Of a stretch of 63,541 nt of DNA, positions 5,012-56,816 are shown piece by piece. How positions within the stretch are numbered: the stretch's first letter is position 1; each line of letters begins with the position of its first letter. The stretch lies in IMG/VR virus record IMGVR_UViG_3300032242_000295, positions 1 to 63,541 of that record. One strand, written 5' to 3'. Origin of the DNA: a virus. Lineage: Duplodnaviria; Caudoviricetes. The notes beneath the pieces are model-generated. The model worked only from the letters and a program-made list of their open reading frames with translations. It did not search any database and was not told the origin of the DNA. The position numbers and the translations under genes were made by a program.

Positions 5012-5224
5012 TTAACCTCCGCGTGGAGCGCCACGACCGTTAGCCATCATCTTTGCAATGTTGCGACCATACTGCTTCATGCCTTCGTTGGTTTTGCCGC
5101 CAGCCATTCCGCCTTTAGCAAGCTTCAACTTAGTGCCTTTTCCGCCCTTATGTTCTTGCATATCATGCTGTTTAAACGCCTTCTTGATCATAGCTTTATC
5201 TTGCGCTAAATCGTCTTTTTCCAT
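5012..5224 (-). CDS. Small basic Gly/Lys/Met-rich protein
   Basis: RBS present; LAKGG motif. Confidence 0.65.
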   Translation of the reverse strand: MEKDDLAQDKAMIKKAFKQHDMQEHKGGKGTKLKLAKGGMAGGKTNEGMKQYGRNIAKMMANGRGAPRGG

Positions 5225-5232
5225 TTCAACTC

Positions 5233-5661
5233 CTAAGTTGTTGCTACCGTGACTGTACCAATTTGTACACTTAAAACCAAGTTATTTGGAGTAAGTGACG
5301 CATCAAAACTCTCTGAACCTCCAACTGGAGCCCATCCCCACTGGAATATCCTGCTACCACCCTCAACAGTTCCAACACCACTCTGGGTAGTGCCGCCGTT
5401 TACATTTATCTGCAGACCACTTGTACCAGACAATACATAACTCCGATCTGGTCGAGGGTTACGCAATCCCTGCGGATCATCCACAGGAAACATTCCCAGC
5501 TGAAGCTGAGGGTGGTCTGGGTCCCAACACTGGGGACAGACAAGTAAGTCGTATTTCTTAAGCTTAATTATCTCAGTTTTTAGGACGGAGAGTTTAAACC
5601 TGAAGCCACATCGATCACATTCAGCAATCGCATGCTTGCCAGAAGCAAAACGATTGCCCAT
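5233..5661 (-). CDS. Zn-binding phage protein (CxxC...CxxC)
   Basis: ECDRCGF and VCPQCWD motifs, HPQL and RPD; in the structural operon. Confidence 0.7.
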   Translation of the reverse strand: MGNRFASGKHAIAECDRCGFRFKLSVLKTEIIKLKKYDLLVCPQCWDPDHPQLQLGMFPVDDPQGLRNPRPDRSYVLSGTSGLQINVNGGTTQSGVGTVEGGSRIFQWGWAPVGGSESFDASLTPNNLVLSVQIGTVTVATT

Positions 5662-6236
5662 TAGATAACCCTACCTTTTGTCCTTCCGCGCTGGGCAACC
5701 CCGTCGGCACGGCTAGATGCTGTCACTTTTCCGCCTTTTTTAAACGGCAACTGATAACTCAAGTTACCCATTTTGTTGTCGCCGCTTTTACCAAAAGATG
5801 CGTTTAAACGACCTTCTCCAAGTTTTGTACTGTAACCAATGTTGTGACCTCGCCCAACTTTCTCGCCGTGGCTTACAACCTCATTGGTATTGGCAAACAA
5901 TCTACCATTACCAAGCGGCATATCTCCGCTTATCTCTCTGACTTGTGTGTGAGGATCTTTGTTGGAGCGTGATAAGGAAGCAGAAACTGAACCCTCGCCA
6001 ACTGGCATCCTGTATGACGCTCTAGTTTGATAGGGTGAATAATTCTCAGACTTGGCTCCCTTGATGTCTTCGTCTTCCATCTTGCCAAGCATTGTCTGAA
6101 GAGAAAGACCATCTTTCTCGGCACGTAGCCCTGCAGAGCTGCCCTCTTTAGAACCCATTCGCATTTTTCCTGCAAATGGTTGAACTAAAGATTCTTCATC
6201 TTCTCCAGAATATTTTTTAACTTTACGGCTACCCAC
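5661..6236 (-). CDS. Beta-strand-rich (beta-barrel-like) protein with C-terminal shared tag
   Basis: Alternating amphipathic strands ending LSYQLPF, then KKGG and SSRADGVAQRGRTKGRVI. Confidence 0.55.
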   Translation of the reverse strand: MGSRKVKKYSGEDEESLVQPFAGKMRMGSKEGSSAGLRAEKDGLSLQTMLGKMEDEDIKGAKSENYSPYQTRASYRMPVGEGSVSASLSRSNKDPHTQVREISGDMPLGNGRLFANTNEVVSHGEKVGRGHNIGYSTKLGEGRLNASFGKSGDNKMGNLSYQLPFKKGGKVTASSRADGVAQRGRTKGRVI

Positions 6237-6238
6237 GG

Positions 6239-7183
6239 TTATCTCCCGATATAGGTTTGCCTAGGCACTAAACGCAATGCTGCCTTCTCATGATCCTCGT
6301 ATGCAGCCAATTCCCAAGCCTCGTCGTATTGTTGTTTAAGCATAGGAATACGCTCCATGCCTGTTGGTATCTTGCCGGCGATGTAATACGAAAGTCCTGC
6401 TGCCATGCATGGGATAAACCGGAAAGGAACATCCATGATGTTTACACCGTTGCCGGCGTCTTGTGTTCTGCGCATGCGCCAGTAAGCAAATGTATATTGC
6501 TGGGCGCTGTCTGGCGTGGGCCAGACCGTTATAGCTGGTAACTGTTGCCAGTACACCGTCGCCGCAGAACTATGCGACGCCGCTATTGTGTTGTTTTGTC
6601 CACGGAAACAATTGTTCAATGTTCCTGAGTTAGCGCCAGATGTCTGGGTGATGTAGCTGTAGTTAATTGTCTCTGAGTCAATCTTGACAAAACCAGATGC
6701 GGGTAAACCCGTAACATCACTCACGGAGATGGTTGTATCTGTTGCCCCGATTGAGGATGACAGAGTACAAGCTACAGGTGTAGTCTGGGCGTTGTAGCGC
6801 TGAATCCAGACCTGAATGGGTCTGGCTTGTTGAATCTTATTGGGGATCGTAGCGTAGGTTGAAACGCTAATTCTTGTGATAGTAAGGTCTGCTTGAGTTG
6901 CAGTGTTGTTAGCACCTGTGCGAATAACATGCTCCAACAGATCAATCGTGTCTGCTGGCAATGCGTAAGTATTCTGCCCTTGAACAAAACTGATTGTTCC
7001 GGGCTCAATAGACCAAAGGTTTATTCCTCGGTTAGCCCAGTCTGAGAACATAATGTTTAAACTGCGCCGGGCAGTCCTTAAGTCATACCCCGAGCGCAGC
7101 TCTCCTCCGGCGCGTTCAAACGCCTCCTCGACTAACTCAGTTAAGTCAAGGTTAAATCCGCTTGTTCCGGAGGTGTTTGCCAT
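6239..7183 (-). CDS. Putative head-tail connector / tail tubular protein with inserted beta domain
   Basis: LTELVEEAFERAG...ARRSLNIMFSDWANRGINLW...DVPFRFIPCMAAGLSYY, typical of this phage group. Confidence 0.65.
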   Translation of the reverse strand: MANTSGTSGFNLDLTELVEEAFERAGGELRSGYDLRTARRSLNIMFSDWANRGINLWSIEPGTISFVQGQNTYALPADTIDLLEHVIRTGANNTATQADLTITRISVSTYATIPNKIQQARPIQVWIQRYNAQTTPVACTLSSSIGATDTTISVSDVTGLPASGFVKIDSETINYSYITQTSGANSGTLNNCFRGQNNTIAASHSSAATVYWQQLPAITVWPTPDSAQQYTFAYWRMRRTQDAGNGVNIMDVPFRFIPCMAAGLSYYIAGKIPTGMERIPMLKQQYDEAWELAAYEDHEKAALRLVPRQTYIGR

Positions 7184-7185: not shown

Positions 7186-7428
7186 TTATTCTGCTGCAAC
7201 CTTAGATTTCTTTGGCTTTTCTTCAACAACTTCCTCAACTACGGGAGCCTCAACTACGACTTCCACGACAGGAGCGGGATCAACTGCTGGAGCAGGAATC
7301 AACTTAACAAGCAGTTCTGCCACATCTTCTGGAACAACGCCAGATGCATTTTTATGCACTTCAGCGTACATGTTTAAACTTGTAATCAGGAGTTGTGCTT
7401 CTTCTTGAGTTACGTTAAGTGCTGACAT
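7186..7428 (-). CDS. Hypothetical protein
   Basis: AAGGA RBS; VVEAPVVEE low-complexity tail. Confidence 0.5.
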   Translation of the reverse strand: MSALNVTQEEAQLLITSLNMYAEVHKNASGVVPEDVAELLVKLIPAPAVDPAPVVEVVVEAPVVEEVVEEKPKKSKVAAE

Positions 7429-7437: not shown

Positions 7438-7611
7438 TTATTTCATCTTCTTTAGGGTTTGAGCTAGACGAGCACGTTGTCCCATCTTGCCGGGGGCTTT
7501 GGCTGCTTTCGCCAACTTCTTTGCGGGAATCGTTTTCCCTTCTTTCACACCAAGCTCGGAGCGCAGAGCCCCGGGTTTCTTGATTGCTTTTTGTATCCAT
7601 TTCTCAGCCAT
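7438..7611 (-). CDS. Small basic protein, 57 aa (absent from ORF track)
   Basis: Read manually: MAEKWIQKAIKKPGALRSELGVKEGKTIPAKKLAKAAKAPGKMGQRARLAQTLKKMK; start overlaps the upstream stop. Confidence 0.75.
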   Translation of the reverse strand: MAEKWIQKAIKKPGALRSELGVKEGKTIPAKKLAKAAKAPGKMGQRARLAQTLKKMK

Positions 7612-7814
7612 TACAGTTTCTCCGCAGTTTCGTGAGCTTGTAAAAACCCTTTCAAGCGTTCGATCTCTTTATCGCGCTCTTCCAATTTACGGATCAAACT
7701 CTCGTTCATATCAGCCCAAACTAGGATCTGGTTTAAACGCTCTTTATGATCGTTGCGCATCATCTCAAACAAGCGCTCGCTTGTATCAATTTGCTTTTGG
7801 ATATAGCCAATCAT
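7611..7814 (-). CDS. Hypothetical coiled-coil protein
   Basis: Coupled overlaps on both sides. Confidence 0.6.
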   Translation of the reverse strand: MIGYIQKQIDTSERLFEMMRNDHKERLNQILVWADMNESLIRKLEERDKEIERLKGFLQAHETAEKL

Positions 7815-8044
7815 CTAAACCTCGCTGTTTTTTGGGCTATGCCCTTGGGTTGTGCTACGAATTGCTTCCCGGCTTTTTTGCCAGCACGTTTCGCACGTGT
7901 TGTAGCAGCGTACTCAGAAGGGCTGAGGCTTTTGATAGCAGCTTCTGGAAGGTATCTTTCACCAGTTTTACTAGACGGTTTACCACTCTTTGTTCTCCAT
8001 TTTTGGTCACCCCAGTTTTTAAGTGACTGTTGTGGCGCTTTCAT
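7811..8044 (-). CDS. Small basic protein (DUF5872-like, C-terminal part)
   Basis: MKAPQQSLKNWGDQKWRTKSGKPS..TGERYLP motif; start moved to MKAPQ. Confidence 0.65.
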   Translation of the reverse strand: MKAPQQSLKNWGDQKWRTKSGKPSSKTGERYLPEAAIKSLSPSEYAATTRAKRAGKKAGKQFVAQPKGIAQKTARFR

Positions 8045-8045
8045 G

Positions 8046-8321
8046 TTAATCCCTGTACCCGCCGCCTGCGGCTTTGTACTTCTTGGCAACCAGTTGGGCT
8101 TTACGTGCTGACCATTGACCAGCGCCTGTGCCCTGAGTTGCTGCGGCTTTTACTTGAGCAACAATTCTTTTGCGAAGACTTGGCTTTGTGTAATTACCAG
8201 CGGCGTTTACCTTTCCGCCTTCAGCGTACTCGGTAAAGTCGGTGTTATCCCTACGGGGCTTTTTCTGCCCTCTTGGCATTTTGGATGGGTTAATAACACC
8301 CATTCCGCGACTTGCCATCAT
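8046..8321 (-). CDS. Small basic protein (DUF5872-like, N-terminal part)
   Basis: NYTKPSLRKRI...GQWSARKAQL..KKYKAAGGGY, preceded by YAEGG; start moved to MMASRG behind an AAGGA RBS. Confidence 0.65.
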   Translation of the reverse strand: MMASRGMGVINPSKMPRGQKKPRRDNTDFTEYAEGGKVNAAGNYTKPSLRKRIVAQVKAAATQGTGAGQWSARKAQLVAKKYKAAGGGYRD

Positions 8322-8331
8322 AGGGATGTCC

Positions 8332-8991
8332 TTAGCAAACTTTGCCGCGAGTCTTGCCCTTTTGAGCAATACCGTCAGCACGTGAAGAAGCAGATGAAGC
8401 CATGCCGCCTTTAGCCATCTTGACAACCTTACCGCCACGCTTCATTTCATCGCTGTCGTAATAGCTGCTTGGGCGAGCCAAAGATGATGTCTTTACTGGC
8501 TTTTCTTTTTCTGCTTTCTTCTTAGCAAGATACTCCATTGCCATTCTGTCTTGGAAACGTAAGTTTGGCGCTGGGGCTTTCTTGCCACTGCCGATGCCAG
8601 AAGGAGCAAAGTCTGTTTCGGTAGCATCAGACGCCCCAGATGGAATTTGAGTTGGACCGTCTCCGCCTCTAACTTTTTGCCCTGACATGCCGGTAGGATT
8701 TCTAACAGCGCTTTGGACCTTAGCCATGCTAGAACGGCTTGGCTTGTTTGCCATTTGATTAGCATTGAACTGATCCATAACGGCGCGGCTACTTGCAGCG
8801 TCTTGAGCGCCTTCTAAATCGCCAAACTCAGTATCCTTCATTGGGCTCATGGCTGCAGTCATTGGCTTTTGACCATAACTTGGCTGAACATCAACTCCGG
8901 TATCGGTATCGCGGTCAGCACCTTTTTTTCTGTTAGCCATCATCATGCCCAAAGCACCGAGGGCAGCTAAACCTGCTAAGTCACGTGGCAT
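8332..8991 (-). CDS. Low-complexity protein with N-terminal hydrophobic helix and C-terminal shared tag
   Basis: GGAGG RBS; ends MKRGG..MAKGG..SSRADGIAQKGKTRGKVC. Confidence 0.7.
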   Translation of the reverse strand: MPRDLAGLAALGALGMMMANRKKGADRDTDTGVDVQPSYGQKPMTAAMSPMKDTEFGDLEGAQDAASSRAVMDQFNANQMANKPSRSSMAKVQSAVRNPTGMSGQKVRGGDGPTQIPSGASDATETDFAPSGIGSGKKAPAPNLRFQDRMAMEYLAKKKAEKEKPVKTSSLARPSSYYDSDEMKRGGKVVKMAKGGMASSASSRADGIAQKGKTRGKVC

Positions 8992-9000
8992 ATAGCCTCC

Positions 9001-9183
9001 TTATTTCTTTTTGCCGTAGCTCATGCCGCCGCCGCACATTGCACGAACTTTATCTTGCTCGTACATGTGACCAGCGCTATGAGGCATGAAATTTTTGCTG
9101 TGGTGATCGTGACCAGCAGCGTGCTCTTTGATTGCTTCGTGCTGCATCTTATGTGCAGGAGCGCTCATCATTTGCTTTTCCAT
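9001..9183 (-). CDS. Small His/Met-rich protein
   Basis: AAGGAG RBS before MEKQMM; MCGGG motif. Confidence 0.6.
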   Translation of the reverse strand: MEKQMMSAPAHKMQHEAIKEHAAGHDHHSKNFMPHSAGHMYEQDKVRAMCGGGMSYGKKK

Positions 9184-9193
9184 GTTGATCTCC

Positions 9194-9664
9194 TTACTTC
9201 TTTTTAGCCATTCCACCGCGCTTGTAAGTGCCGTGGGTTAATGTTGCTTTGCCTGTGCCTATGGCGTTACCAGCCATTTTTGGCATCATGCCCTTAGTCT
9301 TGCCTTTGGCTGCAATGCCGTCGCGGCTGGGAGCAGCAGTGCGAACAGGAGCCATCTTCTCTTTGGTGATTCCCTTGCTTTGCTTGTTAGCGCCCATGCC
9401 AGTGGTATCTCCACCCATGCCCATTTTTTTCATACCCATTTTCATTTCACCACCTCTTTTGAATAAAGCCTTTTCACCGTGATTGGTCTTTGGCTTGTTT
9501 GCTACTTGGGAATCAGCACGAGTATCCGCACTGAACTTTTTTCCCTTATCTGCTGAAGTAAATTCTTTACCCACAGATTGAGGGATGCCAACACGCTTTG
9601 CAGCGGCTGGATCGTTGGCGACCATCGCCATCAGATTATGTTGTTTTTGACTGGTACTAGGCAT
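9194..9664 (-). CDS. Small basic protein with GG motifs and internal shared tag
   Basis: MPSTSQKQHNLMAMVANDP; FKRGG, YKRGG, SRDGIAAKGKTKG. Confidence 0.7.
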   Translation of the reverse strand: MPSTSQKQHNLMAMVANDPAAAKRVGIPQSVGKEFTSADKGKKFSADTRADSQVANKPKTNHGEKALFKRGGEMKMGMKKMGMGGDTTGMGANKQSKGITKEKMAPVRTAAPSRDGIAAKGKTKGMMPKMAGNAIGTGKATLTHGTYKRGGMAKKK

Positions 9665-9839
9665 CTTTTTTCAACAGCTTTTGAACCGTATCTGTTTCGT
9701 ATATACGGATACACATCCATACTATACCTAAAAGAGAGCCAACTAACGTGGCGACTGGAGTCATCCAGCCCATCATGCCAGAGAACGTGACTGTCAAAGC
9801 AGCCCCGTCTGTTAGCGCTTTAGCTTCATGTCCGTTCAT
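9657..9839 (-). CDS. Small membrane protein (holin-like)
   Basis: 60 aa with hydrophobic helices followed by RIYETDTVQKLL. Confidence 0.5.
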   Translation of the reverse strand: MNGHEAKALTDGAALTVTFSGMMGWMTPVATLVGSLLGIVWMCIRIYETDTVQKLLKKDA

Positions 9840-10147
9840 ACAAACCTTCCTTTGGTTCTGCCCTTTTGAGCTGTTCCGTCCGCAGATTTTACATAACCGC
9901 CGTCAGCACAGTTCCATGCTCTAAGACTTTTATTGATCCTAGAGTTGGGATCATTAGCAGTCTTTGCGGAGGTCAACTTCTTCTTCATACCACTCATCCT
10001 CGCACAGAAAGAGTCTCGCCTTGATCCTCCCTCTGGTTGAGGCGGTTTCAGATTGTGACCTTCTTTCTTCGCGGAGGCCCGACCCTTGGCGTTCAGTCCG
10101 CCATTGGGGTTCTTGCCCTCCTTGCGTTGCCATGCTGGAGTCGCCAT
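9836..10147 (-). CDS. Small basic protein (DUF6321-like) with C-terminal shared tag
   Basis: AWQRKEGKNPNGGLNAKGRAS...SFCARMSGMK...SRINKSLRAWNC, then ADGG and ADGTAQKGRTKGRFV. Confidence 0.75.
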   Translation of the reverse strand: MATPAWQRKEGKNPNGGLNAKGRASAKKEGHNLKPPQPEGGSRRDSFCARMSGMKKKLTSAKTANDPNSRINKSLRAWNCADGGYVKSADGTAQKGRTKGRFV

Positions 10148-10150
10148 ACA

Positions 10151-12802: not shown

Positions 12803-12820
12803 ATTAACTCCTTAAATCCA

Positions 12821-12841
12821 AAGAAAGGGGCCGAAGCCCCC
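12821..12841 (-). terminator. Intrinsic terminator (GGGGC-UUCG-GCCCC plus U-tract)
   Basis: Minus strand reads GGGGCTTCGGCCCC TTTCTTT just after the 12848 stop. Confidence 0.75.
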
Positions 12842-12847
12842 GCTTAA

Positions 12848-13852: not shown

Positions 13853-13873
13853 AAATTTTCCTTATGCAAAAGA

Positions 13874-13934: not shown

Positions 13935-13938
13935 TGAC

Positions 13939-15346: not shown

Positions 15347-15369
15347 CAGTTGAAACTTTGGTTTTCCTT

Positions 15370-46400: not shown

Positions 46401-49400
46401 CGACTTTATCTGCCTCAAATTGTTCAACGCCAGCCTTGCCGGTCTGGTGGATTAGAGATGTAGATGCAAACTCCTCTGGAGTCAACTCCATCTCATCTGC
46501 CACATCATTGATAATCTTCTCGTACTTAGGCAGTATGTTGGGGTTCAGTAAACCCTTGGTGGTGTTTCTGAGGCTTGCCTTCTCTGCCTCAGTGCCAGCG
46601 GTAGTTCCACGTAACTCACCACGCTGTGCTTTGCCAAAGATATCCTCTGCGGTCTCAAATCCGCTGCGGTTGAATGCATTTTTGATCGCCCGGAACAGAT
46701 CGTTTAAACGCTTCAAGATGGAAGAGATCATTCCACCGGGTGGCTTGGTCGTGGCGAAGTCAGCAAACGCATCAGCAATTGCTTCTTCCCTTAGGAGGGC
46801 TTGTAGATCAGCATCAGACATAACCTTTTGCTGAGGCTTGTCTGGGTTTGCTTTGTTGTACTCTTCTGGCTGTGTCTTGTTTAAATAGACATAACCATCG
46901 TAGCGGGACATAGTCTTCCCATCTACTTCAACTTGTACATTCTTTAGATACTTGTCAATCCAAGTCTTATCGGCTTGTCTTTCTAATGTTGCCCATTGCT
47001 GATCAGTGAAGAATCCCAGATCCTTCAACGCATGCAATGCCTCATGGTGCATTACCTCTACCGCATTTTCACCTGCGTCGATAGCTAACTTGATTAGATT
47101 CTTTGTGTAGGAGCCTTCTGCCCCATTTTTTATAGACTCAACAATCTTTAAGCCTACGCTACCTAAGCCCATGCGCTGGAGGAGAGGAACTAATCTCTTA
47201 GATATTTCATCTGCGGCGGCTTGTAACTCAGGGGAAAGCGGGGGCAGTTCTTCTTCTTTCTTGGGAGAACGTTTAACCGCTATGCCTGCCGGCTGTTTAC
47301 GGCGCTCAAGTTCTTTGGCGGCACGATCAGCAATAGCACCAAGGCGACCATCGGCGGCAGTTGCAGCCAACTCGTCGTCGGTCATCTGCACAAGGATTGC
47401 TTCCTGTGCTTTTACGTTGTCAGGGAAACTACCTAGAGACTTACCTTGTTTGGTTACGGTGATTTTCTCACGTGTAACTTGCTTCTTAGCTTCTGTTGGA
47501 CGTGACTTCAACGGCTCGTTGTAAGCCGCAATACGATCCATGTGGCGCTCGATGCGCTTACCCAATACTCTCTCTTGCTTGGCTAGTCTGGTTTTGGCAA
47601 GTTCATATGCCTGTGAGCCAACTTCACCACGGGCTTCCATAGACTCAAGATTCTCTCTAGCCCGCTTAAGCGTAGCTACATCTCTGTCCATATTAGCCAA
47701 AGCCTTGGCGGCTTCTTTCTGACGAGCGCCAGTAAGGCTTTCAATTTTTACTTGGAGTTCTTCTTGGGTAGGAACTGTGACTAACGCTTTACCTCTACCC
47801 TCAGGGAATATTTCAAAGCCGACAGGGACTTCACCTTCCTTGACCGTCTCCTTGGTCATCTCGTAACCGGCTGGCAGGTTTGCCCGCTTGGCGGGCTCTG
47901 CTTGAGGAGGAGGAATCAGCTGCTTTAACGTCTCTTCTTTAACGTTTAAACCTTGTTTCTTGGCTGCCGCGTCGGCTTTTGCTTTATCTCTATACGTTGA
48001 AACAAGCTTTCCGTTGTCGTCATAGGTACGGAAAACTCTTTCTTCTGTCTCGGCTAGGTCGCCATTCTTTACCGCAGTGTCAAGTAAAGCTTCTGCGTCG
48101 TGTTTTTGCTCTAAGCCAGTTGCTTCTTGAATGTCAGTAATGATGGTGTCACGCGACAAAGGCTGATTGCCAACACCCTCAAATGTTTGACCAAACCAGC
48201 TAACAGCTTTCTTGTATTGCTTGTCTGTAAAGCGGGATGCGCCTGTGCCCTCAGGGAGAATCTGTTTCTCTTCAGACTCAGGCATTTGTTTAATCGCTTG
48301 GAAAGCGGCAAACAGCTGCGGCTGGGTCATAGTGTTTAAATCACTAGAACCTGTGGTGCGGGTTAGGAAGTCTGCAAATCCTTTTGTGCCTGTGGCAATG
48401 TTCTTCTCGTCCTCGGCGGCAGAAATAACATCTTCAGGTGTGTAATTGACTGGTTTACCTGTGTTGTCATCTACAGGTTTATAGCCGTACTTAGCCGCAA
48501 GGATAGAGTCAATTCTGCCCTGTTCCCCTTCGGGGTCAACGCCGGGCATCGCATCTTTGATGTCTTCAATAGAGTATGACTTGAGAGGCGGCAGCCCATT
48601 TTGTCTGCGGTAGTCATCCACAAACTTAACCTCATCAGGCATCAACTCATTCTTCTTAATGGTTGCGGCTGGGTTGGTGTACTTCTCTTCTTCAGCCTTA
48701 GGCTCATAGCCAAGCGCCAATGTCTTGCCTACACCAAGATTCTCTTTGGTCTGCTGTTGTTGTTTAGCAAACTCTTCTCGCTGAGTTTCAAACTCTTGTT
48801 GGGCTTTAACACCACGTAGATATTTATCTGCCTCGTACTCAGCATGGGCAACAGAATGACCCAAAGGAGACATGGCTGTGCCGGTCAATGCTCCGACTAA
48901 TGCATCCCTAGCCGCCGCACCAGCAACGCCTTGGAATGTAGGTGTGGAGAACCCAGCCTCATCCATCGCCAAGTTCTGGGCTAACTGACCATATCCACCC
49001 TGTAATCCTTCGGGGACAGCTTCTTCAAATCCAGTCTTAACTGCCTGACCCAAGTAAGTCGGCGCTTGTGCCGCCTTCTCTGGTAACTGAGCAATCGCAG
49101 CCTGTAGACCTTCTTTGGTAAATGCTTTCTTCTCAGGAGTTAGTGCGTTCTTGAGTGCCTGAGATGTTGAGCGTTCAAATCCTGTCAGGGCATCTAATGC
49201 ACCGAATGCCGCGCCACCGATTAACTTAGGTGCATTCTTGAGTGTGTACTCTTGCGCCTCAATAGCCAGTCTTTCAGCATCTTCAGGTTTGTAGTTCTTC
49301 TCTAGGTAGGCTTGCTTGATGGCATCATGGATATCACCTTTGACTTCGCCAGTTCCTTGAGCAGCGGCAATAAGTACTTGACTAGCGCGTTGTACACCTA

Positions 49401-49905: not shown

Positions 49906-52020
49906 TTATTCCGTACCAAGATTTTTAAAACCTTTATCTCTCATTGAGCCGCCTTGTGGTAAAGCAGATGAGATGCTGCCGGATGCAGAACCTCCTTGTG
50001 GATTTGCTCTACGCATTACATCGCCCTCAATCTCAATCTCGCGCCGTTTAATTTTTTCTTGGATTGCGGCTCGTTCAGCGTCAGTTTTAGCGCCCATCAT
50101 TTGATAACCAAAATTTTTGATTTGCGCATCTTTGGCAATGTCTTCTTGTATCTTCTGAGCAAGCATTCCTTCATTACGACCATACTGAGCCCCGTACACA
50201 GCTCGACTTGCCATAGACATAAGTTCTTCGCGGCTCTTATCTTTATTGGCAGGATCAGATTTAAGTTCGTTGTAAGCTTGCATGAACGGAGCAACATGTG
50301 ATCCTGCAGACGCAGCAATCTGTGCTCTTTGATTTGCAAGCACTTCTTGTTTGTATTTGAAGTCGTCTATCTCTTTTGCGGCAGTGAGTTCGTAGTTGCG
50401 TTGGTCACGCTTATCTTGGCGTAACTGACCAGCCATAGTTGCGGCAGTTTGCATATCGCCTTTGTCAAGAGCAATCTGATACTTAGTCTGATTCATCTTG
50501 AGGTTGCTGTAATTGTCCTGTGCCGCTTGGATTGCCTTCTGCGTATTGATTGCAGATTCAGCAAGGATTGGAGAAGCCTTAGCCGCAGAGCCAAAGAATC
50601 TTGCTCCGGGTTCTGCTGCCTTTGCCGCCCATCCAAAACCGTACTGGGCTAATGCCTCACCCAGCCCACGTTGTTTAATCTCTTCTGGTCGGGCTTTAAC
50701 GCTTTCAACTTGTGCGTTTAAACTGTCCATAGCAGGTTTGCTGCGGGCAGACAGCTTGTCCAGTATGCCCATAGTCTGCTCTTCTAGAGATGGTTCTGCT
50801 TCTTTTGGTTTGCTCACTAACTCTTGAACGGCAGAGCCTCCAGTGGCATATCCTGTGATGCTGTCTGGATTCTCATCAGATGCCATAGCTTCCGAATCAA
50901 CTGGAACAGACGCAACGCCGGTTCTCATGGACGCTCTATGCGCCATCTCTTGGTCAATTAGATTAGCTTCTTCTACATCACGACGGGCTACAGCGGCTTG
51001 TTTAGCTTTCTGTAGTTGTTCATCGCTTAACTTAGAAAGAATGCCGGCAATGTTGCCAGCGCTTTCAATTTCTCCACCGCCGGCGTATTCATGGATCTCT
51101 CCGCCCTCTGCTTTACCAAATCCTAATTGGCTTAGACCGTAAGCACCCATACCCAGACCAGCAATCTGACCGCTGATGCTTCCGGGGGATTGGTAAATCT
51201 GAGATGTAGATTGCTGACCAAGTGGCAAACCACGAATAAGGTCAGACATAAACCCAATTTGTTTGTATGGGTAGTTCTGTTGATTCAGGAAGTCCTGATA
51301 GGATTGTGTCAAGCCTTGTTGTTCAAGAGCCTGTTGTTGTCCACCGTACTGCGCTTGCAGTTGGTTAATACCCATTTGCTGACCATACTGGTTCTGTCCC
51401 AATTGACCAAGTTGCCCAGCCATTTGACCAGTTAATCCATAGCCTTGCAGTGCTTGATTTTGGGATTGATTGTATTGATTTTGAGCATTTTGAAATGCTT
51501 GGTTGTATGCCTGACCAATAGCTTGATTTTGCTGTGCGCCTAGATTGCGCTGATTCTCGGCAGCCATAATTGCATCGCGTGATCCGCCAAATGCACCTGC
51601 TTGTGTAGCCTGACCCGCTTGTTGAGTTCCAGTAATACCGTACTGACGACGCAATTCTTCCAACTGAGGAGCAAGAGTTAGCCCTAAGTTAGTGTTCATG
51701 TATCCGCCAACATTTTGTTGGAAATTTTGTGGGTTAGCCTGACTTGCAATCCCTAAACCGCCAAGACCAGCCAAACTGGCTGCACCGGTAGCTTGACCAA
51801 TCTGAGGTGCGACTTGCATGCCTTGTGCGGCTTGCATAGCCTGTTGTTGCATTGGGGAGAATCCTGCAATGCGTGGTTGTGTATACTGCTGATAAGGATT
51901 TTGGTTTACATCAGTTAATGCTTGTCCCTTAGCCAAAATATCTTTGGCATACGGTTTAGCCCACTCAGGCAGTTCTGTGGTTGCTAGTTGTTGCTGTGTA
52001 GGTTGTTGTTGCTGGCACAT
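49906..52020 (-). CDS. DNA ejection / pilot protein
   Basis: LPEWAKPY, GAFGGSRDAI, Gln-rich helical body and Gly-rich hydrophobic segment; next to the polyvalent protein. Confidence 0.7.
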   Translation of the reverse strand: MCQQQQPTQQQLATTELPEWAKPYAKDILAKGQALTDVNQNPYQQYTQPRIAGFSPMQQQAMQAAQGMQVAPQIGQATGAASLAGLGGLGIASQANPQNFQQNVGGYMNTNLGLTLAPQLEELRRQYGITGTQQAGQATQAGAFGGSRDAIMAAENQRNLGAQQNQAIGQAYNQAFQNAQNQYNQSQNQALQGYGLTGQMAGQLGQLGQNQYGQQMGINQLQAQYGGQQQALEQQGLTQSYQDFLNQQNYPYKQIGFMSDLIRGLPLGQQSTSQIYQSPGSISGQIAGLGMGAYGLSQLGFGKAEGGEIHEYAGGGEIESAGNIAGILSKLSDEQLQKAKQAAVARRDVEEANLIDQEMAHRASMRTGVASVPVDSEAMASDENPDSITGYATGGSAVQELVSKPKEAEPSLEEQTMGILDKLSARSKPAMDSLNAQVESVKARPEEIKQRGLGEALAQYGFGWAAKAAEPGARFFGSAAKASPILAESAINTQKAIQAAQDNYSNLKMNQTKYQIALDKGDMQTAATMAGQLRQDKRDQRNYELTAAKEIDDFKYKQEVLANQRAQIAASAGSHVAPFMQAYNELKSDPANKDKSREELMSMASRAVYGAQYGRNEGMLAQKIQEDIAKDAQIKNFGYQMMGAKTDAERAAIQEKIKRREIEIEGDVMRRANPQGGSASGSISSALPQGGSMRDKGFKNLGTE

Positions 52021-52029: not shown

Positions 52030-52491
52030 TTAGAATTCATAAATCATTTGCGTGGCGGCTTCTTTAAAGCCCATCCGAGCCCATAGCTTTGCAACACGCA
52101 AGTCGGTCATTGCCGACACCATCAATCGTTTAACACCTCTTGACTTCAAGTCATTAAGTGCAAATTGCACAAGTTTTTTACCAACGCCATTGCGATGATC
52201 TTGTAGTACAAAAAGCGTATCTTCCTGCGCTATTAGATCACGGTTATGCATATCTCTGGTTAGATAAACATTGGCGTATCCACATGCTGCGCCGTTTAAA
52301 CGCAACACATAAGTAATCAAGTCGCCTCGTTCACAAGACTCTCCATACTCATGGAGCCTTGGGTTGTAGGGTGAATAGGTTATTCCTTGCTTGGCTAGGC
52401 GCTCAACCATTTCAGAATAGTGCTGACGGTACAAGGGCTCAAGCTCCAAGTACGTGTCAGTGAACTTCTCAATGGTTATGTCGTAGCTCAT
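52030..52491 (-). CDS. GNAT-family acetyltransferase
   Basis: LFVLQDHRNGVGKKL...LWARMGF. Confidence 0.75.
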   Translation of the reverse strand: MSYDITIEKFTDTYLELEPLYRQHYSEMVERLAKQGITYSPYNPRLHEYGESCERGDLITYVLRLNGAACGYANVYLTRDMHNRDLIAQEDTLFVLQDHRNGVGKKLVQFALNDLKSRGVKRLMVSAMTDLRVAKLWARMGFKEAATQMIYEF

Positions 52492-53969
52492 GCGGGTAAA
52501 TACTTATCTGCCCTGCTGTTATGCGCTACTTTGTCTTTGCCTATTGTATTTTTACGTGCGGCTTGGACTCTGTCCATCATGGCATATAACTTACGGGCAC
52601 CTGCTTCGGTCGAGCCATTTCCTAGTTCAGACACAATACGTGCAGGAACTACAAATTCACCATCGGCTAAACGGGCAGGTTGCTTGTGACCTATGGTCGC
52701 TGGGATTGAATCGGATACACCGTCTCCGGGTCCGCGAAGTAAGCGCCCACCATCAGAGTAACCACCAAGGTTGTAATGCGCATCGGAGATGCCGCCATCA
52801 GCCATTGTCTTGGGCTCATACTGTTGAGTATCTGCGTTGTACTGATAACCTGCCGGCTCTGTTGCAGGCTTAGGTGGACCCATGTTTTCCAATAAATGCT
52901 TCCAGCCTTCTGAACTGCCACCGCTATCGCTCTTGCCAATGTGCCCTATAGCAGAACCAATGTTGCTAATCGCATCTCCCAAGAATCCACCAAAACCAAA
53001 TTTGGGTATGCCATCCTCAGAGAATTTCTCTTCGCCAGTGTAAGGATCTACGCCAACATCGCCGGCACCAGTTAATACATTTTGAGATACTGGGGTTTGG
53101 TAAGGCGTAGCGTAGGCATTGTTGTGCATGTACGCCTGTGGGAATCCTGTGTTAGCCCCAATAGCATTCTCGTTAGACATCTTCTCAATTGGGTTGCCGC
53201 CTTCAGCAAAATGGTAGATGTCCTTAGCCTGCGAAGGATTGACGGGTGTGTACGTGGGGCTTGCAAAGTAATTCTGTTGACGACCAAAGTTGCCTTGCTT
53301 TGTAAGCATATCTTCGTAAGTTGGTACGTCCGGAGCAGGCTGTGGTTGAACTTGACCGCCTGTAAACGCATAGCGTTGACCCATATCTTTGTCTGGAGTC
53401 GGCGCTGTTGGTGCTTTTTGGTCTCCAACTAAAACTGGCGCAGCAGCAGCTAGACCTAATTTAGCCGCTCCCATGCCACCGCCCATCGCCGCAATTGATG
53501 CTGATGGATTGGCAAGTCCGGCTTGCACCGCTCCCAAACTTGATGCCGCACCGGGCATTGGTCCCACAAAAGCAGGATTTGCAGCAGATGCCGCCTGACT
53601 AACAGCAGCATTACCAGCACTAGCCAATCCAGCGCCCAATCCTGCACCGCCCCATGCACCTAAACCAGCCATCAAACCTTTGCCGATGCTTCCGGTGCGT
53701 GCTGCCTCTAATCCACCAATACCTGCGCCAATTAATAGGGATGATCCGCCCGTAGCAGCAGCTAATCCTGCCCCTAAAACCATAGGTAATAACCCTGATA
53801 GGAAGCCCGCCTCAGGCAAACCAGTATGTGGATTAGTTGTTAACGAGCCTCCATGAGCCATAGCCATGTCGTTTAAACTCTTAACCTCTCCCGGCGTCAT
53901 ATGGACAAGCACGGTGTCATCACCACGTCCGTGGGCAGCTAAAAGTTGGGCAGCATTATGTAGGCTCAT
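52488..53969 (-). CDS. Internal virion / ejection protein
   Basis: GRGDDTVLVHMTPGEV..NPHTGLPEA N-terminus, Gly/Ala membrane-like segment, GPGDGVSDSIPA..LADGEFVV C-terminal domain. Confidence 0.7.
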   Translation of the reverse strand: MSLHNAAQLLAAHGRGDDTVLVHMTPGEVKSLNDMAMAHGGSLTTNPHTGLPEAGFLSGLLPMVLGAGLAAATGGSSLLIGAGIGGLEAARTGSIGKGLMAGLGAWGGAGLGAGLASAGNAAVSQAASAANPAFVGPMPGAASSLGAVQAGLANPSASIAAMGGGMGAAKLGLAAAAPVLVGDQKAPTAPTPDKDMGQRYAFTGGQVQPQPAPDVPTYEDMLTKQGNFGRQQNYFASPTYTPVNPSQAKDIYHFAEGGNPIEKMSNENAIGANTGFPQAYMHNNAYATPYQTPVSQNVLTGAGDVGVDPYTGEEKFSEDGIPKFGFGGFLGDAISNIGSAIGHIGKSDSGGSSEGWKHLLENMGPPKPATEPAGYQYNADTQQYEPKTMADGGISDAHYNLGGYSDGGRLLRGPGDGVSDSIPATIGHKQPARLADGEFVVPARIVSELGNGSTEAGARKLYAMMDRVQAARKNTIGKDKVAHNSRADKYLPA

Positions 53970-54003
53970 TCTTGCCTCGCGGATGTATGTTTAAACAATT
54001 TTA

Positions 54004-54663
54004 TCATGATAGCGGGGCAGACACAAACAAAAATGTCACCGCAATACTGGGAGAAGCGGGGTGAGCGGGACTTGTTCCAGCCGCATAAGTTGTCAAAGAA
54101 GAGTTACCAGAATCCGTTGTCCAATAAATTTGGACGTAGTCACCAGTAGTAAGGCTTAAGAACTGATTCCAACCAAACACTAAAGCGCCGTCAGTACCGG
54201 CATGTTTTGCAGGGACAGCAGAAATACCCGCAGCGTTTGTTACATCTGCCCCATTAACGCGAAACCAAACCGTGATGTTGTCCGCCGCATTACCACTATT
54301 TGCGCCTTGAGCGCTGAACTGGATGTTGTAAACGCCGGGGTATGTAATGGTGAATTTAGAGTTGGTTGCCCCAGTATCTAGCGTAATACCATTTGAAAAG
54401 TCGGTGTTGTTGTACGTAATTAATTTAACTGTGTTAGCGGCTGCTGTTTGCGTAGTTGTATCAAACACAGAAATACTAGGTGCACGAAAGAACCGCTGAC
54501 CCGTATTGGTCAAGATAGACTGCGTTATGTTGTCTACCTGATTGAAATACTGACGCAGAATACTGAACGATGAGTCAATAAATGTCTGGTCGTACTGAAC
54601 CGGAGCCGCAGGCAAGCGCGGCTGTTGACTAGCACGTAACTGGGTATTGGTTGGGATGGTCAT
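54004..54663 (-). CDS. Tail-associated protein with C1q/TNF-like C-terminal domain
   Basis: PRLPAAPVQYD..LRQYFNQVD, then ITYPGVYNIQFSAQ..LTTGDYVQI. Confidence 0.6.
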   Translation of the reverse strand: MTIPTNTQLRASQQPRLPAAPVQYDQTFIDSSFSILRQYFNQVDNITQSILTNTGQRFFRAPSISVFDTTTQTAAANTVKLITYNNTDFSNGITLDTGATNSKFTITYPGVYNIQFSAQGANSGNAADNITVWFRVNGADVTNAAGISAVPAKHAGTDGALVFGWNQFLSLTTGDYVQIYWTTDSGNSSLTTYAAGTSPAHPASPSIAVTFLFVSAPLS

Positions 54664-56807
54664 CTACGTCCATCCGGTCTGACATCAATACGTGGAGTAC
54701 CCAGCTGCCACTGAGTTCCTAGATTGTTTGATTCAACCCTAAATGCCATCTGCCTGCCCCGCGCCCGTACATACACAATCTGTGTGAACTTTTGCACGTT
54801 GTAGTAGGGGGAGTTAGCGTAATTGTTTGCGCTGGTGACAGTCGGATTGTCTGCGTCACCATAAGCCGAGCCGGGATTTTGCCTAGGCTTAATTGTGAAA
54901 TTAAGGTTGGGGGTGGCGCTTGTTGAGCCATCGAATGTGACGTCAGGAATAACACGCCAAACAAAACCATAGTTATGACCATCTCCGATGTCAAAGTCAG
55001 AAGACTGACAGAAAGCATCAATAGCCGTTGCAGTACTTGTTTCATAGTTGTCTATCCCTGTTTCGTGGTAGACGATAGCGCCGTTTGTGTAACTGACTGG
55101 GTTTCCATTACTGTTGGTGGCTGTATAACTAATAGCCGCAGTGGGTTCTGCGCGAAGAGGGCTATCTAACCAAGCGGTACGTGGGCGAACGGTTGATCCG
55201 TTCATGGTTCCGTAGTACCAAGTGCGCTCCAAATGGTTAAAAATTACGTAACGGTCAATCAATGAATTAGGATTAGCCGCAGTTCCAGAGCCGTTTGACC
55301 CATCCGCATTTGTTCCTGTAATAGATGGATAGAACCACCAGATTTCGTTATAACCTTCGTTAGTTCCAGCATGGATTTGGAACGCTTCAGTCAAGTTAAT
55401 GTTGTCGTAAATGTACTGACGGATGGCACAAGGCAGTGTTTCAACACGACCAGAGTACATATAGAACTTATCTGCCCCCATCCAGTACACAACGTTATTA
55501 GCCACCGCCACGGCGTTGGGGCTAATGATGGATATGTTGTCGCCCAGAATCTGGCTGCCCCAAACATAAGGAGGTCCAAGATACTGGAAAGAATAGATGG
55601 CTGCGTCCGTCCATACAATTATCTCTTGGCGAGTCTGTAGGGCAGCAACAATTGTGGAACCACGGCTCAAGCGAATACCACCAGCCTGATTGGTAACCTG
55701 TGGCAGCCAAGTGCCAAATAAGCTTTGATCCGACCAGCGAACCTGTAATGGATCTTGTGCTGTTGTCGCATATACGCCAGTAGGGTCGTTGCAACCAAAT
55801 GCAAACACAAAACGCGAAGCATCTGAGACTAATACAAAATTAGCCACAGAGGGGCAGGTTGAATCTATATTTACAGTGCCAGAGGTAACGGTTACTGTTC
55901 CGCCAGCGACCATTAACTGCGCTCTGTCGTAGATGTTGGGGCTAGAGTTATTTGCCCAGTAATACATTGCCCCGCCACGGGGGTTAATGATTAAGTCTTG
56001 CCCAAAGTTAGCTTGACTCCAAAGTCGCAACTGAACCCCAATACCCAGACCAGCAGGAGCAGCAATACCCCAACCCGTAGATGAATATCCTGTAGTAACA
56101 CCACCCCAACCACCAGCACCCCAGCCAGTACCATACGTAAAAGTTGTGTTTCCAGTAGTAAGTTGATAATTAAAAGTTGCACTTACCGCAGGCGTCCCAG
56201 AGGAAGAAGCCGTACCTGCCACCAAAATGGTGTATTGGCTAGAGCTTACATAGGTAACGATTTGGAACTCACCAGTTAACTGCGCAGCAGTCACCCCATT
56301 AACGGCACCAGACACACTTGATATAGTTACAAAATCTCCTGCCTGAGCGCCGTGTCCAGCATCAGTAACTGTGATGGTTGTATACCCACCGCTGTTTGTA
56401 GACGTGGCAGTTGTGAAAGCATTTGCCACACCTGTGTGTGTTGTGCGTATTGGCGTTACATCATTAAATGATCCGCCACTTGAGTTTTGTATGTAATACT
56501 TTAGGTTAGTACCAACGCCAAGTAAGTTGTAACCTACTAAATTAAGCCAGTTCCATAAAGACTTAGCCACACCCCAGAAAGATCCTCCACCGGAAACTGT
56601 TGCTGCAGTTGATGTGCCGCCACTTACGAATGTGCTGGTGGGGACGGTAGACACATAGTTACCGCTGTCCCTGACCCAACCACCAATCTTCTCAGGAAAA
56701 CCAGAACGAAACCGCACCTTGTCCGACTCAAACCAACCGCCCTCGTTAGCAAGGGTAGTAGATTCGCGGTTTACACCGGGTCTAAATTGTAGTTTCTGTA
56801 ATGGCAC
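54660..56807 (-). CDS. Tail nozzle / stabilisation protein (P22 gp10 / tubular B-like)
   Basis: LQFRPGVNREST..VRFRSGFPEKIGGW, VRWSDQ, RARGRQMAFRVES..RIDVRPDGRR. Confidence 0.75.
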   Translation of the reverse strand: MPLQKLQFRPGVNRESTTLANEGGWFESDKVRFRSGFPEKIGGWVRDSGNYVSTVPTSTFVSGGTSTAATVSGGGSFWGVAKSLWNWLNLVGYNLLGVGTNLKYYIQNSSGGSFNDVTPIRTTHTGVANAFTTATSTNSGGYTTITVTDAGHGAQAGDFVTISSVSGAVNGVTAAQLTGEFQIVTYVSSSQYTILVAGTASSSGTPAVSATFNYQLTTGNTTFTYGTGWGAGGWGGVTTGYSSTGWGIAAPAGLGIGVQLRLWSQANFGQDLIINPRGGAMYYWANNSSPNIYDRAQLMVAGGTVTVTSGTVNIDSTCPSVANFVLVSDASRFVFAFGCNDPTGVYATTAQDPLQVRWSDQSLFGTWLPQVTNQAGGIRLSRGSTIVAALQTRQEIIVWTDAAIYSFQYLGPPYVWGSQILGDNISIISPNAVAVANNVVYWMGADKFYMYSGRVETLPCAIRQYIYDNINLTEAFQIHAGTNEGYNEIWWFYPSITGTNADGSNGSGTAANPNSLIDRYVIFNHLERTWYYGTMNGSTVRPRTAWLDSPLRAEPTAAISYTATNSNGNPVSYTNGAIVYHETGIDNYETSTATAIDAFCQSSDFDIGDGHNYGFVWRVIPDVTFDGSTSATPNLNFTIKPRQNPGSAYGDADNPTVTSANNYANSPYYNVQKFTQIVYVRARGRQMAFRVESNNLGTQWQLGTPRIDVRPDGRR

Positions 56808-56816
56808 GTTTAAACT

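Follow-up and report, generated by a model that had tools for sequence, protein, structure and literature searches.

Introduction

Short DNA words that recur over a whole replicon are known from several systems. Cluster A mycobacteriophages carry stoperators, 25-35 copies of a short word in ~50 kb that lie in intergenic as well as coding DNA, vary between sublineages and are read by a phage-encoded immunity repressor (gp71 in phage L5); these sites are 13 bp long, asymmetric and co-oriented with transcription. In the KorB-OB system of plasmid RK2 (12 sites) and in the Noc, SlmA and ParB site sets, palindromes are spread over a whole replicon, and their reader is a dimer, encoded by the element or by the host, with effects on distant DNA. 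In cellular chromosomes, HIP1, the DNA uptake sequences (DUS/USS) and Chi occur at ~1 per kb in several coding frames, shape the encoded peptides, are rarer in new DNA, form dialects and are used by host machinery. Phages usually avoid short palindromes. Here we describe an iterated word in a phage (Caudoviricetes), the 63,541-bp IMG/VR record IMGVR_UViG_3300032242_000295, which was analysed whole and is referred to as the window: the 8-base palindrome GTTTAAAC occurs in 49 exact copies where ~1.4 are expected, and it accompanies, across phages of several host phyla, the gene of a SprT/Spartan-like protein of 199 aa (24993-25592, plus strand), the putative reader of the octamer.

The array resembles the stoperators in its many short copies inside and between genes, in its lineage-specific variants and in having a candidate phage-encoded binder. 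Unlike them, it consists of a palindrome of 8 bp that in this clade ignores gene direction, saturates its synonymous opportunities, spans several host phyla and accompanies a Spartan-like protein instead of a repressor; an exception toward the stoperator type is phage Tweety19, where co-orientation is seen for 11 of 13 intergenic sites. With the RK2 sites it shares the palindrome and the distribution over the replicon, yet there are 49 sites instead of 12, the protein family is a different one, and no ParB-like protein was found here. HIP1, DUS/USS and Chi match it in density, use of several frames, effect on peptides, scarcity in new DNA and dialects, but they belong to cellular chromosomes, whereas the word described here follows a phage gene across hosts.

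The candidate reader recalls SPRTN/Spartan, Wss1 and bacterial SprT, DNA-dependent metalloproteases that likewise join a HExxH minimal gluzincin core to a small zinc-binding module. Spartan, however, binds DNA by structure and not by sequence, and one large clade of the phage homologues lacks HExxH. ImmA/IrrE-type regulators, to which we obtained a weak fold match (3dti, E 0.23), are also small zinc proteases of mobile elements tied to gene regulation, but their substrate is a partner repressor, and an array of sites over the genome is not known for them. For a homologue from an Arthrobacter phage, Lizalica gp46, a recent preprint on the AZ cluster describes a HExxH minimal gluzincin core with a small zinc-binding, nucleic-acid-binding module (10.1101/2025.05.26.655371). 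In the searchable literature we found no report of a sequence-specific site set for the Spartan family, and a full-text search, mostly outside subscription journals and supplements, returned no description of the word, its variants or the gene family in phages.

Results

Enrichment of the octamer and selection on it

GTTTAAAC is the most frequent 8-mer of the phage genome, at a density of ~1 per kb. Dinucleotide-preserving shuffles (n = 100) yielded a mean of 1.42 copies (sd 1.19, maximum 5), and Markov models of order 0-3 gave expectations of 1.2-3.0. The 24 one-mismatch words, when pooled, amount to 45 sites against ~32 expected, so that the octamer is sharply specific. The flanks are weakly biased, with a pyrimidine at -1 in 38/49 sites and a purine at +8 in 31/49; beyond these two positions no conservation was seen around the 49 sites.

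The array had been noticed in an original prediction made from the letters of the window, and its description proved accurate. All 49 start positions that it listed were reproduced by exact counting, and its estimate of 1-2 expected copies agrees with the shuffles and Markov models above. The 5' C that it saw in about half of the sites is present at -1 in 25/49, and the extended palindromes that it mentioned are TGCGTTTAAACGCA at 26413 and ATGTTTAAACAT at 23374. Its statement that the sites use different frames is borne out by the occupation of both stop-free frames, xGT-TTA-AAC (the L-N frame) and xxG-TTT-AAA-C (the F-K frame), and the placement in intergenic gaps and at gene ends by 7 intergenic sites and 4 that supply a TAA stop. 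The tail-fibre block and the region 7.8-14.3 kb, described as empty, hold zero sites when delimited as 56816-63541 plus 1-5169 and as 7739-14364, and the four copies upstream of the LexA-like gene 23101-23331 fall within 286 bp.

These site-free stretches total 18.5 kb, in which ~20 copies would be expected at the density of the remaining genome (49 in 45 kb), and comprise the tail-fibre genes and other variable structural genes. The density is highest in the early/replication block, with 20 sites in 26.1-40.4 kb.

Within the curated list of 92 genes on which the coding tests were run, 38 of the 49 sites are intragenic and occupy the two stop-free frames, those supplying a stop codon being among the in-gene or border cases. 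When synonymous codons were shuffled gene by gene with the proteins kept (n = 1000), only 3.34±1.65 sites arose (maximum 9), and shuffling of codon order gave 0.99±0.98, against the 38 observed. The enrichment thus survives the codon-preserving shuffle that had been proposed together with the original prediction. Indeed, 24/30 [CGRS]-L-N and 14/18 x-F-K-[C..] peptide contexts are spelled as GTTTAAAC. In the site-rich parts, 38/44 encodable contexts are used, compared with 0/4 in the tail-fibre parts, and such contexts are themselves about six times rarer in the site-free than in the site-rich parts. In relatives below 80% nucleotide identity, 217/545 sites were retained where random 8-mers of the same alignments would give 56, a roughly fourfold excess.

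In whole genomes, the asymmetric one-mismatch variants show no preference for gene direction (with/against 45:46 and 34:29); for this clade, a role as promoter, terminator or RNA signal is therefore disfavoured. An orientation bias of 105:32 in loci centred on TerL disappeared in whole genomes and was discarded, because orthologous sites had been counted repeatedly. Selection acts on the double-stranded DNA word. Of what the original prediction had concluded, the selected binding or marking site at the DNA level is upheld by the synonymous saturation, the retention in relatives and the lack of a direction bias, while the LexA-like reader that it favoured is not (see Discussion).

The word in relatives and in unrelated lineages

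IMG/VR holds at least 593 TerL relatives, of which we examined 80 TerL-centred loci with 81-94% TerL identity. These contain 475 GTTTAAAC sites in 790 kb, and the relatives that carry the word span 45-58% GC. In the whole relatives G001, G002, G003, G004 and G005, whose proteins are often just 40-70% identical to those of this phage, we counted 23, 52, 21, 5 and 18 copies, with 0-1 of the reversed word. Site positions are common to several genomes at portal column 503 and TerL columns 339 and 420, sometimes as a one-letter variant, and some lineages prefer GTGTAAAC or GTTTAAAT over GTTTAAAC.

Two subclades have purged the exact palindrome and yet keep a one-letter variant at similar density (G009, that is L367-L369; L292-L296 and L313-L315; L016, L017, L020 and L022). 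In G009, GTTTAAAC is absent and GTCTAAAC occurs 36 times, which in coding DNA is a synonymous change from TTA to CTA; a subclade of the TerL relatives, comprising three helix groups, has 0 GTTTAAAC, 39 GTTTAAAT and 12 ATTTAAAT. One idea is that a host enzyme cutting GTTTAAAC lies behind the purge. TerL fragments of 82-84% identity (L099, L100) were also met on 1.5-1.8-kb contigs in metagenome-assembled genomes (MAGs) of Saprospiraceae and Methanoregula, in which the word is not in excess (45 versus 163 for the control, and 7 versus 20); these contigs are probably mis-binned. A further piece of phage DNA may be contig C273 of the Saprospiraceae MAG, which is 1.7 kb long and holds three sites.

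A scan of IMG/VR for two copies of the word 10-40 bp apart returned, besides kin of this phage, contigs with ~3 sites per kb whose TerL is only ~22% identical and whose only protein in common with this phage is the SprT-like protein of 199 aa; over the other motif-rich lineages, TerL identity to this phage is 22-34%. A profile scan of IMG/VR with the SprT-like protein gave 80 loci, altogether with 1545 sites in 909 kb. Of these loci, 75 belong to a phage clade of ~41 kb with 1-3.8 sites per kb, including a subclade of higher GC content with 0 GTTTAAAC and 11-29 GTCTAAAC per locus, and four of the five more distant loci are enriched, one of them (71% GC) for GTGTAAAC. The word excess in the genomes G008-G012 beats synonymous shuffles. 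A second candidate for an iterated palindrome, CGAGCTCG in G010 (81 copies), was rejected, since codon bias accounts for most of it (71 intragenic copies, compared with 47.9±4.0 in the shuffle).

Among cultured phages, 164 GenBank entries encode a homologue of the SprT-like protein, and 15 were tested for the word, with the reversed word as control (forward/reverse where two counts are given). GTGTAAAC is found in Tweety19 of Arthrobacter (27 sites), Microdon of Streptomyces (43) and Barnstormer of Microbacterium (23), with a control count of 0 in all three. GTTTAAAC is found in R5C of Dinoroseobacter (17 sites, control 1/0), Pan1 of Pseudanabaena (16, 0), Mica of Burkholderia (7, 1/1), Alexa of Acinetobacter (8, 2/3), Mano of Achromobacter (4, 0), Persinger of Pseudomonas (4, 0), MQ-4 of Serratia (6, 3/1), PT1 of Salmonella (6, 3/1) and ep3 of Escherichia (4, 2/3), the SprT-like copy of the last being interrupted by TGA. 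For seven genomes (six isolates and G010), composition predicts 0.2-0.5 copies and synonymous shuffles 0.1-4.5, and the observed counts exceed the shuffles. Altogether, the hosts of the word carriers are Actinobacteria, Alpha-, Beta- and Gammaproteobacteria and one cyanobacterium, and GC contents range from 31 to 71%.

Some local features of these genomes may be recorded here. In Tweety19 (L389), four intergenic regions of the right arm (31829-37888) repeat TTGCG(T/C)-N17-TTAGACT-GTTTACAC; the unit resembles the -35 and -10 elements of a promoter, and the octamer falls precisely where transcription would be expected to start. In the clade of ~41 kb, the surroundings of the SprT-like gene (G008 26749-28919; L365:6749-8919) encode an Amidoligase_2 protein, a class-II glutamine amidotransferase, a DUF3846 protein, a deoxynucleoside monophosphate (dNMP) kinase and a sigma-70 region-4 protein, a set that recalls DNA or protein modification systems and is not common to this phage. 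G011 (L376) has at ~15330-15560, beside its SprT-like gene, at least 7 copies of TGTTGCACCGCAC that resemble origin iterons, and GCCCTGCC-type repeats occupy the equivalent place in G008.

Co-occurrence with the SprT-like gene

In a jackhmmer search with every protein of this phage up to 1200 aa, which leaves out the 3162-aa polyvalent protein, the SprT-like protein was the only one with homologues in all of G008-G012. Of 154 SprT-like loci, which partly overlap and are related, 153 hold the word or a one-mismatch variant. Conversely, none of seven whole phages without the gene is enriched for the word (Pam1, FuzzBuster, HTVC027P, Pag-Yong1, CRP-901, BaileyBlu and Kalimba), absence of the gene being called with profile A3 at E<=0.01 (positive control 5/5). 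The same was seen in 50 kb each of 023Pt_psg01 and DSL-LC04, where neither the gene nor an enrichment was found.

Several of these phages form instructive pairs. Pam1 and Pan1 share a host genus and a lake and have 1 versus 16 sites, and the Microbacterium phages FuzzBuster and Barnstormer have 0 versus 23. BaileyBlu and Kalimba, close kin of the Arthrobacter AZ phages, resemble them in their sigma-like DNA-binding protein and replication genes and have neither a SprT-like gene nor sites, and the Planktothrix phage Pag-Yong1 has a related TerL, a large polyvalent protein and 0 sites. In the Mesyanzhinovviridae CN2, Epa43 and Psa21-HRN, the protease half of the SprT-like protein is kept and the C-terminus lacks both KQxTR and cysteine; these genomes hold 1, 1 and 0 copies of GTNTAAAC, the outcome for Psa21-HRN having been predicted beforehand. 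We read the word as a signal borne by the phage and not by the host, and as tied to the SprT-like gene, specifically to the part that encodes the C-terminal module.

The word is also frequent just before the gene. A site of the family lies at most 100 nt upstream of the SprT-like start in 114/169 genes, compared with 16% expected from density, and GTTTAAAC stands 15-19 nt before the annotated start in 7/7 isolates from Gram-negative hosts, in genomes that have only 4-8 sites.

The SprT/Spartan-like protein

In the 199-aa protein, a HELIH metal site is followed by the basic residues KKKQSTR and by a C-terminus that is rich in Cys and resembles a zinc ribbon. The protein matches phrog_6361 (E 1.5e-36), and its homologues are labelled SprT-like protease by GenBank annotators. 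HExxH is kept in 58/154 homologues and lost in 96/154. The invariant residues of the family include Q159, T161, R162, C168, R176, P187 and C189. The clade of ~41 kb has lost HExxH, keeps the C-terminal module and reaches the highest site density (median 1.8 per kb versus 0.87).

An AlphaFold2 model (predicted local distance difference test, pLDDT, 94.4) is confident save for the basic stretch 151-160, and further Foldseek matches, behind the top one discussed below, are minigluzincins (TM 0.32/0.53). Modelled in two copies, the protein scored 0.75, compared with 0.00 for the best of 3 controls; the homodimer mark was reached by 20/30 proteins solved as pairs of one chain and 1/23 solved as single chains, counts that apply only approximately here, since we supplied an alignment of our own. 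The runs agreed in 100% of contacts, the pLDDT of the partner was at least 89, and residues 153-162 (KKKKQSTR) stay outside the symmetric interface. The modelling thus supports a symmetric homodimer.

Positions of the sites and gene content of the phage

All sites given here are exact matches placed on the gene list. In the left part of the window, 5170-5177 (gene 5012-5224, minus strand) and 5592-5599 (5233-5661, minus) are in the F-K frame, and 5802-5809 (5661-6236, minus), 7055-7062 (6239-7183, minus), 7372-7379 (7186-7428, minus) and 7731-7738 (7611-7814, minus) in the L-N frame. Beyond the first gap follow 14365-14372 (14006-14434, plus; F-K frame) and 16231-16238, which is 43 nt from the start of the major head protein gene (15370-16281, minus). 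The portal gene contains 19478-19485 (F-K frame; alignment column 711, a position common to G004) and 20102-20109 (alignment column 503, common to 5/6 genomes), and the TerL gene contains 22075-22082, a position shared with G002 and occupied by a one-mismatch variant in G004.

Around the terminase genes, 23339-23346 is non-coding and lies between a TATAAT, which it follows by 1 nt, and the gene for a 76-aa LexA-like winged helix-turn-helix (wHTH) protein, whose start is 7 nt away; 23376-23383 and 23591-23598 are in the conserved spacer between TerS and TerL, 23617-23624 lies 8 nt past the TerS stop codon, with a site or variant at the same place in G000-G005, and 23767-23774 is inside the TerS gene (23633-24265, minus). 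The spacer (23332-23632, minus) is conserved non-coding DNA of 300 bp with 4 GTTTAAAC sites, C-runs, GGGGTATATATATTTT and the palindrome CGAACGTTCG, and its layout is kept in G000-G005: C5-C8 runs, GCTTACGCTNTAATCCAC and CCCCGGGGTATATATATTTT come before CTTGCGAACGTTCG, with a site 6-7 nt further. It is probably a separate cis element, pac or regulatory, and could be a pac site, a late promoter or an unwinding element. In 15 relatives, the spacer preceding the wHTH-TerL genes contains, as a separate element, the single copy of the chromosomal parS consensus TGTTTCACGTGAAACA, perfect or nearly so with 0-2 mismatches (L004:664, L024:1259, L036:2422, G005:44843 and 11 more loci). This consensus is absent from this phage genome and G001-G004.

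In the early region, 26101-26108 and 26416-26423 are in the AAA_5 ATPase gene, the latter within TGCGTTTAAACGCA and common to G001 and G003, with a one-mismatch variant in G004; 27105-27112 is 10 nt past the ATG of the VWA gene, and 28174-28181 lies in the same gene. The site 29141-29148 provides the TAA stop of 28952-29146 (plus), 29700-29707 is intergenic, immediately 5' of AGGAG and the ATG of 29718, and 30667-30674 is within 30372-30707 (plus). A further TAA stop, that of 31059-31295 (plus), is given by 31290-31297, which together with 31338-31345, intergenic between convergent genes and beside terminator-like hairpins, flanks a hairpin. The primase-helicase gene holds 32175-32182, common to G002, and 32807-32814. 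The intergenic 34311-34318 and the site 34363-34370, which gives the TAA stop of 34365-34610 (minus), flank the hairpin GCTCACCCGGTGAGC. The hairpins enclosed by the two pairs, 31290-31345 (spaced by 48 bp) and 34311-34370 (spaced by 52 bp), are rich in G+C and separate blocks of genes. The remaining early sites are 35682-35689 in the PD-(D/E)XK exonuclease gene, 36829-36836, 11 nt past the ATG of 36818-37105 (plus), 37795-37802, 1 nt upstream of the ATG of the ribbon-helix-helix gene 37804-38100, 38194-38201 and 38245-38252 within 38097-38309 (plus), 39894-39901, 10 nt upstream of the ATG at 39912, and 40349-40356 in the HNH gene 40000-40425 (plus).

The gene of the polyvalent protein (40414-49902, minus) accommodates 41953-41960, 42402-42409, 43366-43373, 43749-43756, 46117-46124, 46702-46709, 47944-47951 and 49630-49637. 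To the right of it are 50716-50723 in an ejection-protein-like gene (49906-52020, minus), 52294-52301 in an acetyltransferase-like gene (52030-52491, minus), 53871-53878, 91 nt from the start of the gene 52488-53969 (minus), and two intergenic sites, 53989-53996, 19 nt upstream of the start at 53969, and 56808-56815, which adjoins the GTG start at 56807. A regular spacing, suggested by four neighbour gaps of 964-967 bp, was rejected, being at chance level in gap-shuffled controls. The best 5-bp window over all pairwise distances holds 4 pairs, which 11% of the gap-shuffled controls equal, and no helical or long-range period stands out among the distances, in G002 likewise.

The late genes encode TerS, the LexA-like wHTH protein, TerL, the portal, head and tail-fibre proteins, ejection-type proteins and the 3162-aa polyvalent protein with LPD38 and ART domains. 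The early genes encode the SprT-like protein, the AAA_5/VWA pair, the primase-helicase, RusA, the PD-(D/E)XK exonuclease, Sak, the ribbon-helix-helix protein and HNH nucleases. The MoxR-like AAA_5 ATPase and its VWA partner (25532-28708) lie directly 3' of the SprT-like gene, and the pair is kept in G001-G004. Of the two HNH endonuclease genes (14487-14876 and 40000-40425), one is on the opposite strand inside the structural block. The proteins scanned, which do not cover every open reading frame (ORF), include no methyltransferase, restriction nuclease, integrase or CI-type repressor. Four DnaA-box-like words (TTWTNCACA) cluster at 24356-24417, where TerS and the early operon diverge; since comparable clusters of 3-6 words sit at the same place in G001-G005, a host-DnaA-dependent origin or control region is likely. 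Megablast of 20 kb of the genome against named phages gave no match, and the nearest named phages, 023Pt_psg01, the pelagiphages HTVC027P and HTVC023P, DSL-LC04 and Pag-Yong1, have only structural genes in common with this phage (TerL 47-58% identical).

Discussion

We propose, at roughly even probability, that the GTTTAAAC sites are cognate sites of a dimeric SprT/Spartan-like protein. This early, phage-encoded protein would read the octamer duplex as a symmetric dimer, the basic KQxTR stretch and the zinc-ribbon-like module of its C-terminus making the contacts. In the simplest form, represented by the phages with 4-8 sites, a single site 15-19 nt upstream of the SprT-like start codon would be an autoregulatory layout, whereas in several lineages, this phage among them, the word would have spread over the chromosome, to ~1 per kb in the window and to as much as 3.8 per kb in other phages. 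The word enters coding sequence through both synonymous and amino acid changes, and therefore its density along the phage DNA appears to be selected. The likely purpose would be to hold the SprT-like protein on the phage's own DNA, where it might act as a DNA-dependent metalloprotease if HExxH is kept, as here, and as a plain DNA-binding protein if it is lost. The absence of sites from the tail-fibre modules may reflect a recent exchange of this DNA, too recent for copies of the word to have accumulated. The data show that the word is enriched, selected as DNA and conserved, that it co-occurs with the SprT-like gene and its C-terminal module, and that a site precedes this gene; direct binding of the octamer, the dimer and the role of a tethered protein are what we infer from these observations.

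Several points weigh against this proposal. The whole case rests on co-occurrence, and the co-occurrence counts are not independent, as many of the SprT-positive genomes were found through similarity to this protein and represent roughly eight lineages. L363 has an intact-looking SprT-like copy and only 1 site in 20.6 kb, and no family site lies within 150 nt upstream of the SprT-like gene in this phage, G002, G004, G005, G012 and R5C. In the C-terminal module, no residue changes were found that follow the variants of the word other than through lineage. All of these variants (GTCTAAAC, GTGTAAAC, GTTTAAAT) are asymmetric and the doubly changed palindromes are missing (GTCTAGAC 0 in G009, GTGTACAC 0-1), which is not what a simple symmetric dimer would give if its preference for the half-site had changed. 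The 26:10 strand bias of G009, together with the intergenic sites of Tweety19, 11 of 13 of which point along transcription, hints at a direction-dependent role. Moreover, proteolysis is not the universal function, because the densest clade has lost HExxH. The Pfam match to SprT-like (PF10263; E 8.6e-4) reaches 19.6 bits, under the gathering cut-off of 25.6, and the top Foldseek match, the SprT domain of human Spartan (6mdw), is weak (E 8.7e-3, TM 0.25).

Among the alternatives, it is conceivable, although rather unlikely, that another factor reads the octamer and the SprT-like gene is a mere passenger, for instance if the word were an operator, initiator or 5' leader of an early unit that usually starts with this gene; the reader would then be the host RNA polymerase or a small, fast-evolving phage regulator missed by sequence searches. 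The four Tweety19 sites that directly follow TTGCG(T/C)-N17-TTAGACT, the orientation of the intergenic sites in that phage, the TATAAT next to site 23339, the frequent placement immediately 5' of ribosome-binding sites and the site before the SprT-like start, equally a promoter or leader element, would all suit such a role. It accords poorly with the 38/49 sites inside genes and the lack of orientation bias in this clade, and GTTTAAAC is missing from 24266-24673, the principal control region from which early and late genes diverge. BaileyBlu and Kalimba have the sigma-like protein and replication module of AZ phages and no sites, three phages that lost just the C-terminal module of the SprT-like protein also lost the word, and the jackhmmer search gave no other common protein. 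The operators of the LexA-like wHTH protein (23101-23331), the candidate of the original prediction, are the least probable explanation. The protein matches a LexA DNA-binding domain (E 6.1e-13), has the four sites upstream of its gene, and is present in 79/80 TerL-centred relatives and absent from two motif-less named relatives. Its recognition helix, however, is near-constant across the variant lineages; a covariation of helix and word, suggested at first by SNIHR and SNVHR, failed with more loci, SNVHR occurring also with strict GTTTAAAC. In G008-G012, which hold the word or a one-mismatch variant, the wHTH profile matches nothing (E up to 10), and the conserved palindrome CGAACGTTCG beside the wHTH gene is an equally good candidate operator. 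The ribbon-helix-helix protein 37804-38100, a kind of dimer to which a palindrome of 8 bp would be suited, was rejected as a reader too, its beta-strand KPFMTYL being constant and the protein, among the genomes examined, being confined to G000-G003.

It seems improbable that the word is recognised by a sequence-specific DNA modification system, its copies then marking phage DNA, or by an enzyme of the restriction type (PmeI-like) as part of an arms race. GTTTAAAC is the PmeI site, and an exact 8-bp palindrome of sharp specificity, its replacement by variants in the purged subclades (0 against 36 GTCTAAAC in G009, 0 against 39 GTTTAAAT in three helix groups) and the amidoligase, amidotransferase and dNMP-kinase genes that adjoin the SprT-like gene of G008 would fit type II enzymes or modification; yet a restriction target is expected to be avoided and not enriched 35-fold, the G008 genes have no counterpart here, neither a methyltransferase nor a restriction nuclease was met among the phage proteins scanned, and the hosts span several phyla. 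A packaging signal read by TerS (23633-24265) or the wHTH protein, with the cluster 23339-23774 as pac, is very doubtful. It would account for five sites in 436 bp around the TerS-TerL spacer, with flanking positions kept in G000-G005, in a layout of sites, small wHTH gene and TerL that resembles cosB-Nu1-A of lambda, but one pac site per genome suffices, the wHTH protein is absent from the other motif-rich lineages, where TerL is only 22-34% identical, and Pag-Yong1, HTVC027P, 023Pt_psg01 and DSL-LC04 have a related TerL (47-58%) without sites. Pag-Yong1, having a polyvalent protein as well, weakens the packaging, ejection and polyvalent-protein readings that the original prediction had offered. 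Equally little probability attaches to a host-driven origin, in which phages would copy a Chi-like or uptake-like word or a host repair bias. DUS/USS and Chi have a comparable density, use all frames, are absent from recent modules and form lineage dialects, and the variants described here accompany changes in GC content; against this stands the occurrence of the same word in phages of Actinobacteria, three classes of Proteobacteria and a cyanobacterium, over the whole GC range, which makes a host bias unlikely, as do the pairs Pam1/Pan1 and FuzzBuster/Barnstormer. The two MAGs with a TerL fragment are not enriched either, a weak argument given that their contigs are probably mis-binned.

A more far-reaching form of the SprT-like reading, which we consider unlikely, is that the octamer array is a self-marking for a DNA-tethered protease that serves as counter-defence, from actinophages to phages of freshwater proteobacteria. 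A dimeric Spartan-like enzyme would then be loaded, and perhaps switched on, solely on DNA bearing the word, and would strip host silencers, nucleases and stalled complexes from the incoming chromosome. The purge of the exact palindrome would record a counter-move of the host by enzymes cutting GTTTAAAC, and the clade without HExxH would have made the tether into a pure shield or organiser.

In summary, our study reveals an exact octamer that is kept near saturation in phage DNA, even at a cost to protein sequence and despite the usual avoidance of palindromes by phages, and that recurs, as such or with one letter changed, in phages of actinobacteria from soil, of proteobacteria from marine and fresh water and of a cyanobacterium. 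The word can serve as a practical marker for binning and recognising such phages in metagenomes. If its link to the SprT-like protein is direct, it would give a testable function to a widespread gene family that is annotated in phages as SprT-like protease. Under the same condition, a Spartan-type protein would for the first time have a set of sites defined by sequence, and one more way in which a virus marks its own DNA would have come to light.

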